Shown here piece after piece: positions 38,210 to 61,886 of a DNA stretch of 64,000 nt. The stretch spans positions 54,795 to 118,794 of the forward strand of contig JBMNJR010000008.1 of the NCBI GenBank assembly GCA_050951765.1, in the 5' to 3' direction. The notes beneath the pieces are model-generated. The model saw only the letters and a program-made list of their open reading frames with translations. It made no database searches and had not been told where the DNA came from. Made by a program: the position numbers and the translations under genes. The stretch's first letter is position 1, and each line of letters opens with the position of its first letter. This stretch comes from a bacterium. Its GTDB lineage: Bacteria; Bacillota; DTU030; JBMNJR01.

Positions 38210-38240
38210 TAAATAAAAAATTGAACTATAGCGCATTATA

Positions 38241-38330
38241 TACTAGGGGAGCTGGAAACGCCAGCTGAGATAAAGACGTAATTAGTCTTTGACCCTTGAC
38301 CTGATCTGGATAATGCCAGCGTAGGGAAGT
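38241..38330 (+). promoter_or_regulatory. TPP (THI-box) riboswitch aptamer
   Basis: CTAGGGGAGC...GCTGAGA...ACCCTTGACCTGATCTGGATAATGCCAGCGTAGGGAAG matches conserved THI element segments. Confidence 0.85.
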
Positions 38331-38350
38331 AACTTTTGTTTTTGTTGTAA

Positions 38351-38927: not shown

Positions 38928-39749
38928 ATGAAGAATGTCTTGACTATTGCCGGCTCTGACAGCAGTGGCGGAGCAGGCATTCAGGCGGATCTAAAAACCT
39001 TTTCCGCCCATGGGGTTTTTGGCATGAGTGTGATTACAGCTATTACAGCTCAAAACACCCAAGGGGTTTTCGGTGTCGAAGACATCTCCGATGCAATGAT
39101 CGAAAAACAGATCGACGCAATATTTACCGACATTAAAGTTGATGCTGTGAAAATAGGCATGGTTTCCCAATCGAAAACCATTAAATCCATTGCAAAAAAA
39201 TTAAAGCAATACGCACCGAAAAATATCGTTTTAGATCCTGTTATGATCTCCAAAAGCGGCTATGATTTATTACTCCCGGAAGCCAAGGAAACGCTGATCA
39301 ACGAGCTTTTGCCGCTTGCTACCATAGCTACGCCAAATATTCCGGAAGCTGAAGTCATAACCGACATCAAGATCGCCACCACCCAAGACATGGAAAAAGC
39401 GGCAATAAAAATTCATGCACTGGGGACAGAAAATGTCCTGATCAAGGGTGGCCATATGCAAGCAGAGGCAACCGATATATTATACAATGGGAAAGAATTC
39501 TTTTATTTCACTGCAGAAAGAATCGCCACAAAAAATACCCATGGGACCGGTTGCACCTTATCAGCCGCCATTGCCAGTAACCTGGCTAAAGGTTATCCGG
39601 TAAGGGAAGCAGTGGCGCAAGCAAAGGATTATATTACCACAGCCATAAGGCATGCATTAGACTTGGGCACAGGTGTAGGGCCGACAAATCATTTTTATAC
39701 CTTATACAAAAAGGCTGGTTTACTTGATAATGGAGCTGAAACCAATTGA
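38928..39749 (+). CDS. thiD: Hydroxymethylpyrimidine/phosphomethylpyrimidine kinase
   Basis: VLTIAGSDSSGGAGIQADLKT N-terminus. Confidence 0.9.
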   Translation: MKNVLTIAGSDSSGGAGIQADLKTFSAHGVFGMSVITAITAQNTQGVFGVEDISDAMIEKQIDAIFTDIKVDAVKIGMVSQSKTIKSIAKKLKQYAPKNIVLDPVMISKSGYDLLLPEAKETLINELLPLATIATPNIPEAEVITDIKIATTQDMEKAAIKIHALGTENVLIKGGHMQAEATDILYNGKEFFYFTAERIATKNTHGTGCTLSAAIASNLAKGYPVREAVAQAKDYITTAIRHALDLGTGVGPTNHFYTLYKKAGLLDNGAETN

Positions 39750-40570
39750 AAATACTGCAAAGGATTTCAAAACTGTTACCGGAAATCAAAGCAAGAAAAC
39801 CGCTAATCCATCATATAACAAACTTTGTCACTGTAAATGATTGTGCAAATATTACTCTTGCCATCGGCGCTTCCCCGATCATGGCTGTTGATGGGGCTGA
39901 GGTGGCGGAAATTGTGTCAATGGCCTCTGCACTAGTATTGAATAGCGGCACATTAACTTCTGACTCCATTAAATCTATGCTTATAGCGGGGAAAAAAGCA
40001 AACGAGCTGAAAATACCTGTAATTCTTGACCCTGTGGGAGTGGGTGCTACTACATTAAGAAATGAAGCAATAAGAAAGCTATTGACAAATGTTAAAATTG
40101 CGGTACTTAAAGGCAATATGTCAGAAATAAAGTTTATATCCGGCTTGGATGTTAGCATTAGAGGGGTAGATTCTACCGCAAGTGAAGAAGGAAGCGCAGA
40201 AGCAGCAAAAAAATTGGCTGCGCAGTTAGGATGCGTGGTGGCTATAACAGGTAAGCGGGATATTATATCGGATGGAGATATAACCTTTTTTATCGATAAT
40301 GGCCATGAAATGTTGGCACATATTACCGGCACCGGCTGTATGATCTCATCATTAATCGCCTCATACAGTGGGGTTACAGATGATTATCTAACTGCTACTT
40401 TGGGAGGGATAATCTCAATGGGAATTGCCGGGGAAATTGCTTCCCGATCATTAACAAACGACCAGGGAATAGGAAGCTTTAAGGTGAATCTATTTGATTG
40501 TATCTATAAACTTACATCAGATACGATCATAAAAGAAGGTGCTATAAGTGTTTACGAAAGAAAGGATTAA
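39746..40570 (+). CDS. thiM: Hydroxyethylthiazole kinase
   Basis: Conserved ThiM N-terminal region; 4 nt overlap with thiD. Confidence 0.85.
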
Positions 40571-41177
40571 TTATACTCTCTATTTAGTAACCGATAGGGA
40601 TTTATTAGGCAAGAGGGATCTGGCTACAAGTATTGCGGAAGCTATTGCCGGTGGTGTAACTATGATTCAGTTGCGAGAAAAGAAATGTACAACAAGAGAA
40701 TTCTATAATCTTGCTGTCAAAACAAAAGCAGTCGCTGCCAGTTACAAGATACCCTTTATTGTTAACGATAGGTTAGACATAGCTTTAGCAGTGGATGCTG
40801 ACGGGCTTCATGTTGGCACTGATGACCTGCCGGTAAGTGTGGCCAGAAATTTGCTTGGTCCCGATAAAATTTTAGGAGTATCAGCGGCAAATCTTGCTGA
40901 GGCGCAGGCAGCACAAGCCCAAGGCGCCGACTATCTTGGTGTAGGAGCCATCTTCCCAACCGCAACCAAAGAGGTTACCCACAGTGTAAGCTTAACGGAT
41001 TTGCGGCTGATTAAATCCTCTGTGCAAATTCCCATAGTGGCTATCGGCGGCATCAACGAAACAAATGCAAAAGAAGTAATGCAGACAGGTATTGACGGAA
41101 TTGCTGTGGTTTCCGCTATTCTAAGCAAACCTGATATCTGCGCTGCAGCCCAAAAACTCTATAGTATAATAGTTTAG
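40548..41177 (+). CDS. thiE: Thiamine-phosphate synthase
   Basis: YLVTDR motif and TIM-barrel ThiE features. Confidence 0.9.
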
Positions 41178-46398: not shown

Positions 46399-47508
46399 TT
46401 ATTTACTCTTAAACTGCTCCCATATTGTTTGCCATTCTTTTTCATTGGCTGGAACTATCCTGGTAGCGATGCGGTCAAGCATATCATTTAACAGTTCTGG
46501 ATTGTCCATCCGCAGCAATGCAGCCTGTTCCGCACTGAGATAATCAGCTGCTTTCATATTGGGCACCGTTGAATGGAAAGCGTTTGCCCAAGCCAATTTT
46601 GCCTGTACTTCCGGACTAATAAGATACTGCACAAAGGCTTTGGCAGCTTCCGGATTTTGGCTATGTTTCATAATTGATAGTGATTCTGTCCAAGACACGC
46701 CGCCTTCTTTAGGCATAACCACTTCAATGGGATACCCTTCTCCCTTTAACAGCACTTGTAGCCATTCACCGCCAAAACTTAACCATGCACTTTCATTCGC
46801 CAAAGCTTGAATTGTATCGGCGTTGGTAGCGGCAATCACGCCTACCTGAGGACGTAAAGAATATAATGTTTCCTCCAGTTCATCCAAGTCAGGACCTTCA
46901 ATCTCATAAGGCTGCTCATGCCCCAGATAGGCTCCCAACATACCCATATTGGGCAGATACCAGTCAAAAAGAACAATTTTCCCTTTATATTTTGGATCCC
47001 ACATTACATCCATAGACATGGCTTCTTCTTCAGTTACATAGTTTGAATTATAGACAATACCATAGTAACCCCACCGGCTGACAATGGAATACATTTGATC
47101 ATTCACAAAAAGCTGTTCAAAATCCTGCCAGTGGTCATAAAAGTTTTTAATCTCCGGATAATCACCGGGATCAAGCGGTGCAATCATATCAGCAGCTACC
47201 AACTTCTCCACCCAAGGAGTATCCGGTGTCACAACGTCCCACTCCCCCGGTTGAGAATTGGTAAGAATAGAGAACATTTGATCTGAGCTGGAATAAACCC
47301 GCGAATTAACCTTAACTCCATACTTTTCTTCAAAGGGTTGAATAATTTGTTCTTCCTCATATCCGGGCATAACCAAGATATTTAACGTACCGCCTATATA
47401 ATTTTCATCTTGATCACCACTGGGTGCAGTAGTTTGTTGACCACAACCGGAAAGAATGAGAATGGCAAAAGTGAATACTAGCAACAATGCTATTGCCTGC
47501 CTTTTCAT
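46399..47508 (-). CDS. ABC transporter substrate-binding lipoprotein (polyamine PotD-like)
   Basis: Lipobox LSGC after signal peptide; 369 aa periplasmic-binding-protein-like sequence. Confidence 0.75.
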   Translation of the reverse strand: MKRQAIALLLVFTFAILILSGCGQQTTAPSGDQDENYIGGTLNILVMPGYEEEQIIQPFEEKYGVKVNSRVYSSSDQMFSILTNSQPGEWDVVTPDTPWVEKLVAADMIAPLDPGDYPEIKNFYDHWQDFEQLFVNDQMYSIVSRWGYYGIVYNSNYVTEEEAMSMDVMWDPKYKGKIVLFDWYLPNMGMLGAYLGHEQPYEIEGPDLDELEETLYSLRPQVGVIAATNADTIQALANESAWLSFGGEWLQVLLKGEGYPIEVVMPKEGGVSWTESLSIMKHSQNPEAAKAFVQYLISPEVQAKLAWANAFHSTVPNMKAADYLSAEQAALLRMDNPELLNDMLDRIATRIVPANEKEWQTIWEQFKSK

Positions 47509-61045: not shown

Positions 61046-61182
61046 AAAGGTATTAAATAGGAGGTTTAAATATGCCAGAAGAATTCAAGATCGGATGCCA
61101 AAGGCCCCCTCTAAATAATAAAGACAATAACAAGCAAGTCTCTAACATCGAAGGGCAACCTGTGTTAAAGGAGGAACAATCC

Positions 61183-61794
61183 ATGGTTAAGGTTGGTAAA
61201 TCAGCACCGGAATTTACTGCTCCTGCATTCTATCAAGGAAAGTTTATGAATGTAAGTCTTTCCGAGTATATCGGCAAATGGGTATTGTTGTGCTTCTATC
61301 CCGGTGACTTTACCTTCGTCTGAGCAACAGAAATTTCAGCAGTTGCTGAAAAGCACCAAGAGCTGCAAGATTTAGGGGTGGAAATATTATCTGTTAGTGT
61401 AGACAGCGTATTTGTTCACAAAATGTGGAACGATCATGAACTGTCCAAAATGATTAATGGCAATATCCCATTCCCTATGTTATCCGACCAAGACGGCAGT
61501 ATCGGTAAAAAATATGGCATTTATGATGAAGATGCAGGAGTTGAAACAAGAGGAAGATTTATTATTGACCCTGATGGTATTATCCAGGGGTTTGAAGTAT
61601 TAACACCTCCGGTGGGCAGAAATGTAAGTGAATCCATTCGCCAAATTCAAGCATTTCAACTGGTCCGTGCTGCAGGAGGAGCCGAAGCAACACCCTCAGG
61701 CTGGAAGCCTGGCAAGAAGACTCTCAAGCCAAATCCCGAACTTGTGGGTAATGTTTGGAAAGAGTGGAAGGTAAGCGAAGCCTTTGAAGATTAG
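61183..61794 (+). CDS. Peroxiredoxin (AhpC/Prx family) with in-frame TGA at the peroxidatic position (predicted selenocysteine)
   Basis: RBS AAAGGAGG plus ATG 61183; ...FYPGDFTFV[TGA][11 protein letters not shown]...[13 protein letters not shown]; the TGA at 61321..61323 replaces the Cys of the FTFVCPTE motif; C-terminal EATPSGW lacks the resolving Cys of AhpC. Confidence 0.75.
61324..61350 (+). promoter_or_regulatory. SECIS-like hairpin downstream of the UGA
   Basis: Stem TTCAGC/GCTGAA with AGTT loop, beginning 11 nt after the TGA. Confidence 0.55.
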
Positions 61795-61886
61795 TTGATT
61801 TATTGCGACAAGGGCACATAATGAATAACAAACCATGTGCCCTTGTCTTGATATAAACATTTTCTCCCTGAGTCTGCGCAAGTTTA

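Follow-up and report, generated by a model that had tools for sequence, protein, structure and literature searches.

We analysed a 64,000-nucleotide stretch of contig JBMNJR010000008.1 from an uncultured bacterium of the Bacillota (hereafter the window) and conclude with high confidence that a peroxiredoxin (Prx) reading frame interrupted by a TGA codon is one intact prxU gene, which encodes a Prx of the AhpC/Prx1 fold with selenocysteine (Sec) as its peroxidatic residue. Recognising prxU restores a complete antioxidant enzyme that is otherwise split in public calls of the same sequence, and it would mark the source organism as a selenium user. The gene is a further member of the known and widespread PrxU family and nothing categorically new; a curated model exists for Sec-peroxiredoxins, which have been known since 2001. 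The by-products of the comparison are a TGA that is universal in the clade, a very compact selenocysteine insertion sequence (SECIS) with clean covariation at synonymous sites, and an N-terminal Cys arm combined with a nested start. Experiments have established Sec-Prx as a family of selenoproteins (Sohling et al. 2001, cited in PMC13188914 and PMC8533274), and PMC13188914 describes its PxxxTxxU motif. The TxxU motif also appears in selenoproteome surveys, and Sec-Prx is the second most abundant family in Sargasso Sea data (PMC1088965).

A UGA codon at the peroxidatic position

Two open reading frames (ORFs), 61072..61323 and 61378..61794, lie in one frame, and the TGA at 61321-61323 is the sole interruption between them. 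Translated through the TGA, the frame comprises 240 codons from the ATG at 61072 (TGA at codon 84) and 203 codons from the ATG at 61183 (TGA at codon 47). A first-pass annotation of this DNA, made from the letters alone, had joined the two ORFs into one AhpC/Prx protein, and its coordinates and frame agree with ours. With Sec entered as Cys for scoring with hidden Markov models, the protein matched the equivalog NF040737 (peroxi_PrxU; 233 model positions, cut-off 270 bits) with 407.8 bits in the long form, covering model positions 2-232 of 233, and with 393.6 bits in the short form. The AhpC equivalog TIGR03137 gave 188 bits, below its cut-off of 272. Pfam matches were to AhpC-TSA (6.5e-39), Redoxin and 1-cysPrx_C, and relatives found by tblastn align to residues 1-240 of the window protein.

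The best solved relatives are typical 2-Cys peroxiredoxins, which phmmer aligned over nearly the full length with E values of 1e-48 to 1e-41. These alignments place the TGA at the peroxidatic Cys, the position that had been proposed for it from the context PGDFTFV-U-ATE, and the sequence EATPSGW, which had been pointed out as occupying the usual resolving-Cys region, is aligned with EVCPAGW of 5zte. Typical 2-Cys Prx/AhpC proteins (5zte, 1qmv, 1yep) thus share with the window protein the fold, the subfamily, the Pro, Thr and Arg residues and the 1-cysPrx_C region, whereas the window protein has Sec for the peroxidatic Cys, Thr207 for the resolving Cys, Cys for Phe ten residues before the Sec, and an N-terminal Cys arm. 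With PrxU of Eubacterium (Peptoclostridium) acidaminophilum (Sohling et al. 2001, Biol Chem 382:979) and with NF040737 it has in common the Sec in PxxxTxxU and the missing C-terminal resolving Cys, although the window gene comes from a different, uncultured organism. The coordinates of all features are collected in Table 1.

We scanned one genome per GTDB species for relatives of the gene and found them at no fewer than 596 loci; the sequence work was done on the best 80 of these at least 596. The 80 are 64-78% identical to the window protein (78% for the best genomic relatives) and span Bacillota, Desulfobacterota, Spirochaetota, Nitrospirota, Dehalococcoidia, Caldithrix and others. The first-pass statement that such proteins are known in a few anaerobes therefore understates their spread, with relatives in at least 596 species-level genomes and a curated NCBI equivalog model devoted to them. 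All 80, as well as the window, carry TGA at the peroxidatic codon, and both halves of the gene are intact throughout.

If the TGA were a genuine stop, as in a pseudogene, after a nonsense mutation of TGC or TGT, or through a sequencing error, the locus would yield only an 83-aa N-terminal fragment and perhaps a 138-aa C-terminal fragment from the GTG at 61378. Gene callers do report exactly these two pieces, 83 aa and 138 aa, on near-identical metagenome contigs, as had been predicted for standard callers, and the Sec machinery was not found within the window. Nevertheless, we regard a genuine stop as extremely unlikely: the same TGA recurs in all 80 relatives across several phyla between strongly conserved halves (60-79% identity), and independent assemblies from several samples (L081, L083) yielded the same sequence. 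Moreover, the GTG at 61378 encodes the conserved Val of the L-G-V-E motif and is no conserved start, and neither fragment would hold the complete active site.

A different objection arises from the public protein collection, in which the Sec site of the 120 nearest protein clusters (P0001-P0120) reads Trp in 111, Gly in one and Cys in eight. Taken literally, these letters favour a reassigned code in which UGA stands for Trp (code 4) or Gly (code 25). They apparently arise, however, as artefacts when gene callers adopt code 4 or 25 for short contigs with a single UGA gene: at the loci of one Trp cluster the DNA reads TGA, and translation with code 11 does not reproduce the database entry. In the window itself TGA is the ordinary stop of seven of the 39 ORFs of at least 200 aa, and a reassigned code is therefore, to near certainty, excluded. 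The relatives also belong to many phyla in which the standard code is used, and Trp or Gly in the place of the catalytic nucleophile would abolish peroxidase chemistry. The public collection mistranslates the Sec codon of PrxU as Trp or Gly in 112 of the 120 clusters (loci L085-L087), which constitutes a systematic source of error for selenoproteins.

The hairpin downstream of the UGA codon

A short hairpin, which we interpret as a SECIS, follows the UGA codon of prxU. It had been described as a 6-bp stem with an AGUU loop that begins 11 nt after the UGA; loop and spacing hold, while the stem can be extended to 7 bp and then starts 10 nt after the codon. In the minimal SECIS of Escherichia coli fdhF, SelB binds an upper stem-loop that is located about 11 nt beyond the UGA and carries G-U in the loop. 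The prxU hairpin resembles it in being short, in its distance of 10-11 nt from the UGA and in its small apical loop with G-U, but its 7-bp stem has no bulged U, its loop is AGUU, and the extended lower stem is missing. The first and last bases of the tetraloop (61341 and 61344; columns 21 and 24 of alignment A2) covary, with AGUU in 56 of the 80 compared sequences (relatives and window), GGUC in 22 and other loops in two; GGUC is also the loop sequence of fdhF. Both end bases occupy synonymous third positions, and they look like a closing interaction around the invariant G-U. A small apical loop containing G is a stated hallmark of bacterial SECIS elements (PMC1088965).

Pairing was tested on 80 aligned sequences against 500 shuffles. 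We found that 98% of the pair cells of the hairpin are paired and that four of the seven pairs show double changes, values that none of the 500 shuffles reached, and sliding the register of the hairpin reduced pairing to 41-72%. RNAalifold predicted the same helix unprompted. Pair 18-27, which joins the third bases of a Ser codon and of the second Ala codon, is A-U in 47 sequences, G-C in 28, U-A in three and G-U in one, and is never unpaired; another pair at third positions is U-A in 51 and C-G in 16. All seven pairs are formed in 70 of the TGA genes (n = 80), six in nine and five in one, while five homologues with TGC or TGT form 3, 4, 4, 5 and 6 of the seven. The Cys-codon homologues L091 and L092 retain five to six of the seven pairs, which is consistent with a recent conversion of Sec to Cys and a decaying SECIS. 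The alignment indicates that the hairpin is under selection as RNA.

Several observations weigh against the identification of a Sec-Prx and of its SECIS. ARAGORN detected no tRNA-Sec in the 64-kb window, and no selA, selB or selD is present among its ORFs, so that Sec decoding in the organism rests on two UGA genes with hairpins. The single-sequence fold is modest, with -8.0 kcal/mol and z scores of -1.3 in a 40-nt and -2.7 in a 24-nt context, and the fold of the 60 nt 3' of the UGA is no better than that of shuffles (z = -0.12). Because the hairpin overlaps codons for the conserved peptide [IVL]SAVAEK, most of its bases are under coding constraint as well, and the informative signal is that of only two or three synonymous positions. 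Furthermore, neither the shuffle test nor the Mann-Whitney test takes phylogenetic relatedness into account, and no SECIS family of Rfam matches the prxU locus at gathering or E-value thresholds.

Against this stands the comparative evidence, because of which, and not because of the single-sequence fold, we place the hairpin beyond chance; the Rfam result reflects the coverage of that library and is no argument against the hairpin. That the window holds another UGA gene with a hairpin of its own argues for the presence of the Sec-use trait in the host. Altogether, the initial proposal of a Sec-peroxiredoxin is borne out by the score above the cut-off of the PrxU equivalog, the universal TGA, the covariation of the hairpin, its decay in the Cys forms and the normal termination of other ORFs in the window at TGA.

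By analogy with the established bacterial SECIS mechanism, we propose that the UGA at 61321-61323 would be recoded during translation, with the hairpin 10-11 nt downstream presenting its loop G-U. SelB with Sec-tRNA(Sec) would be recruited by the hairpin, leading to insertion of Sec instead of termination.

Nested starts, the N-terminal arm and candidate resolving thiols

The first-pass annotation had placed the start of the gene at 61183. This codon is indeed a conserved internal start, but the coding region of prxU most likely starts at 61072, as the extension upstream of 61183 is under selection at the protein level. We examined the start region and the arm in 80 sequences, the window and 79 related loci. 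A start codon lies exactly eight codons 5' of the arm Cys in 79 of the 80, and the 37-codon extension is kept in frame in all 80 relatives. The arm has the consensus M-[PA]-E-E-[FI]-K-x-G-C-x-R-P and leads into a variable linker; the distance from the Cys to the internal Met is about 27-34 residues. Within its motif, Cys is found in 80, Gly in 79, Arg in 79 and Pro in 80 sequences, with all six Arg codons and all four Pro codons in use; the amino acids are thus fixed while synonymous codons are free, which implies protein-level selection on the extension. The NF040737 model includes the extension as well.

The internal start, for its part, is preceded by a Shine-Dalgarno-like sequence that is selected at the nucleotide level, since Glu codons in the six codons 5' of this start are strongly biased towards GAG (101 GAG and 31 GAA; remainder of the gene, 362 and 719; Fisher p = 2e-21). 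Some lineages (L093/L094) have the short form alone, and the N-terminal arm is therefore dispensable. From these patterns, one gene probably gives rise to two nested isoforms, one of 240 aa with the Cys arm and one of 203 aa lacking it.

Like most members of the PrxU family, the window gene encodes the 37-residue N-terminal extension with its invariant Cys. The PrxU described by Sohling et al. in 2001 reportedly matches 203 aa with Sec47, as in the short isoform of the window. The seleno-peroxiredoxin CLOST_2406 of Clostridium (Acetoanaerobium) sticklandii is annotated with Sec84 of 240 aa (PMC3091704, Table 2) and so has the geometry of the long form; it is known by annotation only, and we liken it to the window protein by this geometry. 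In the available literature on PrxU we found no discussion of the 37-residue extension, and the only element of the gene for which we found no description is the combination of a conserved N-terminal Cys arm and a nested internal start.

These features bear on how the enzyme would be recycled. It had been taken for a single-Sec peroxiredoxin, a description that is not established given an invariant Cys9 in the G-C-x-R-P motif of the long form and an invariant Cys ten residues before the Sec in every form. A 1-Cys Prx has no conserved second Cys, but here Cys74 is invariant in all forms and Cys9 is present in 80 of 80 long forms; a 2-Cys Prx has the C-terminal Cys of EVCP(A/S)GW, but here the sequence is EATPSGW with Thr207.

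From known Prx chemistry, we expect that the selenolate, activated by Pro77, Thr81 and Arg160, would reduce H2O2 or organic hydroperoxides and thereby become a selenenic acid. A thiol would then resolve the selenenic acid, the candidates being Cys74, Cys9 of the flexible arm and an external redoxin such as thioredoxin, and a thioredoxin-type system would recycle the enzyme.

We speculated that PrxU genes are two in one, and that the Cys of the G-C-x-R-P arm would give the long form a tethered thiol that resolves the selenenic acid, or a redox relay for it, and would replace the lost C-terminal Cys. Sequence data speak strongly for both starts and for protein-level selection on the arm, while the function of the arm is entirely inferred, and we consider this reading tentative and rather doubtful. 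The invariant Cys at position -10 competes with the arm Cys as a resolving candidate, and we know of no N-terminal-arm resolving mechanism in AhpC/Prx1-type peroxiredoxins. The AlphaFold model of a Cys homologue (P0102) has a mean predicted local distance difference test score of 85.8, with a confident Prx core, about 63 in the arm and less than 50 in the linker; accordingly modelled, the linker is predicted to be disordered and the arm is of intermediate confidence. Cys arm and nested start together offer a hypothesis for the recycling of a Prx that has lost its canonical resolving Cys.

Genomic context and a second UGA gene

Table 1. Features of the prxU locus and its surroundings (positions in the window)
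Feature	Position	Strand	Remarks
IS21-type and ISNCY-like region	~56685-59606		ORFs 57595..59157, 57077..57601, 56685..57173, 59217..59606
Spx/ArsC-related UGA gene	60321..60677	+	U13-T-T-C16 in place of CxxC; TGA 60357-60359; 400 bp 5' of prxU
Hairpin of the Spx/ArsC-related gene	60375-60393	+	Lower stem 60364-60368/60396-60400; 15 nt after the UGA
Shine-Dalgarno sequence AGGAGGT	61059..61065	+	6 nt 5' of the long-form start; Shine-Dalgarno-like sequence of at least 5 nt in 69/80 at the equivalent start
prxU coding region, long isoform	61072..61794	+	240 codons including UGA/Sec84; stop TAG 61792-61794
Arm motif G8-C9-Q10-R11-P12	61093..61107	+	Candidate tethered resolving or redox Cys
Internal Shine-Dalgarno-like sequence AAGGAGG	61168..61174	+	Within the long ORF; at least 5 nt in 78/80
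Internal start	61183..61185	+	Would give a 203-aa short isoform with Sec47; ATG in 78/80, GTG in 2/80
Cys74 (Cys37 of the short form)	61291..61293	+	10 residues before Sec; invariant in alignments A1, A3 and A4; Phe in 2-Cys Prx
Active-site motif P77-G-D-F-T81-F-V-U84 (PxxxTxxU)	61300..61323	+	P77 and T81 invariant in family alignment A1
UGA predicted to be read as Sec, peroxidatic residue	61321..61323	+	TGA in 80/80 related loci and the window; close TGC/TGT homologues exist
Putative SECIS hairpin UUUCAGC-AGUU-GCUGAAA	61334..61351	+	Stem 61334-61340/61345-61351; loop AGUU 61341-61344
Arg160, conserved active-site arginine (RGRFIID)	61549..61551	+	Invariant in A1; aligns to R of RGLFIID in 5zte and 4fh8
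Thr207 at the typical 2-Cys resolving-Cys site	61690..61692	+	EATPSGW against EVCPAGW, phmmer alignment to 5zte and 4fh8
13-bp inverted repeat GACAAGGGCACAT ... ATGTGCCCTTGTC	61807..61847	.	Directly 3' of the prxU stop; possible terminator

The second gene with an in-frame UGA lies upstream of prxU and encodes an Spx/ArsC-related protein, which scored 100.6 bits against TIGR01617 (cut-off 75) and 32.7 bits against NF041106, 'ArsC family (seleno)protein', whose cut-off of 85 it does not reach. Its hairpin has 8 bp and a GUG loop, with a folding energy of -18.2 kcal/mol and z = -2.2. A homologue with 55% identity (P0130) carries Trp at the Sec site, probably a mistranslated TGA as in the PrxU clusters. 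We propose this gene as a candidate second selenoprotein gene, in which Sec would replace the first Cys of a CxxC redox switch (NN-U-TT-C). Public gene calls retain only a 65-aa C-terminal fragment of it.

The window neighbours of prxU are a rubredoxin gene, the Spx/ArsC-like gene and genes for a rubredoxin-domain protein, a hemerythrin/DUF438 protein and a DUF255 thioredoxin-domain protein; prxU is part of an oxidative-stress cluster in this uncultured anaerobe. Conserved synteny was considered and rejected: the Spx-like gene, the RUBY-domain protein, DUF438 and orf131 stand beside prxU in 0 of 80 loci, and rubredoxin does so in two. De novo clustering of the neighbours at 80 loci revealed weak recurrence of a FAD-dependent (flavin adenine dinucleotide) disulfide oxidoreductase (8 loci), a Fur/PerR-like regulator (7) and catalase (4). 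Both the neighbours in the window and those that recur elsewhere fit peroxide defence in an anaerobe.

This context also bears on the possibility that the UGA is decoded but that the product, through its Cys arm, acts as a redox sensor or as a relay to a partner such as the adjacent Spx-like selenoprotein, and not as a peroxide scavenger. Peroxiredoxins can act as redox relays. The UxxC gene related to Spx/ArsC adjoins prxU here, and the tethered Cys motif is specific to the family and has no known role. Signalling is mentioned in a review (PMC13188914). Yet the absence of an Spx-like gene near prxU in all relatives, the detoxification context given by the recurrent Fur/PerR-type regulators, catalase and FAD-disulfide reductases, and the intact catalytic set of Pro, Thr, Sec and Arg make a relay very unlikely, and we retain peroxidase activity as the probable function of PrxU.

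Downstream of prxU, the inverted repeat is a possible terminator common to prxU and the convergent gene; the terminator scan made no call at 61807..61847, where the loop measures 15 nt and the T run is weak. Upstream of the rubredoxin-prxU cluster lies an element of the IS21 type (insertion sequence 21), with an IstA-like protein of 520 aa and an IstB that is apparently split into two ORFs, together with an ISNCY-like transposase fragment. The insertion is absent from the related metagenome contig L082, and L081 has about 826 bp more, including a gene for a 265-aa protein.

Elsewhere in the window, we translated a third candidate TGA join (minus strand, 54396-54394) and discarded it as non-coding; it gave no Rfam hit. 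In the surrounding interval (54107-54712, about 600 bp, flanked by lgt and cobO) we found neither a credible ORF nor a match to Rfam (best E = 0.47). A further TGA join, at 47044-47046, falls inside a gene on the opposite strand (46399..47508). A thiamine pyrophosphate (TPP) riboswitch (RF00059, 78 bits) is located at 38235-38344, upstream of thiD-thiM-thiE (38928-41177).

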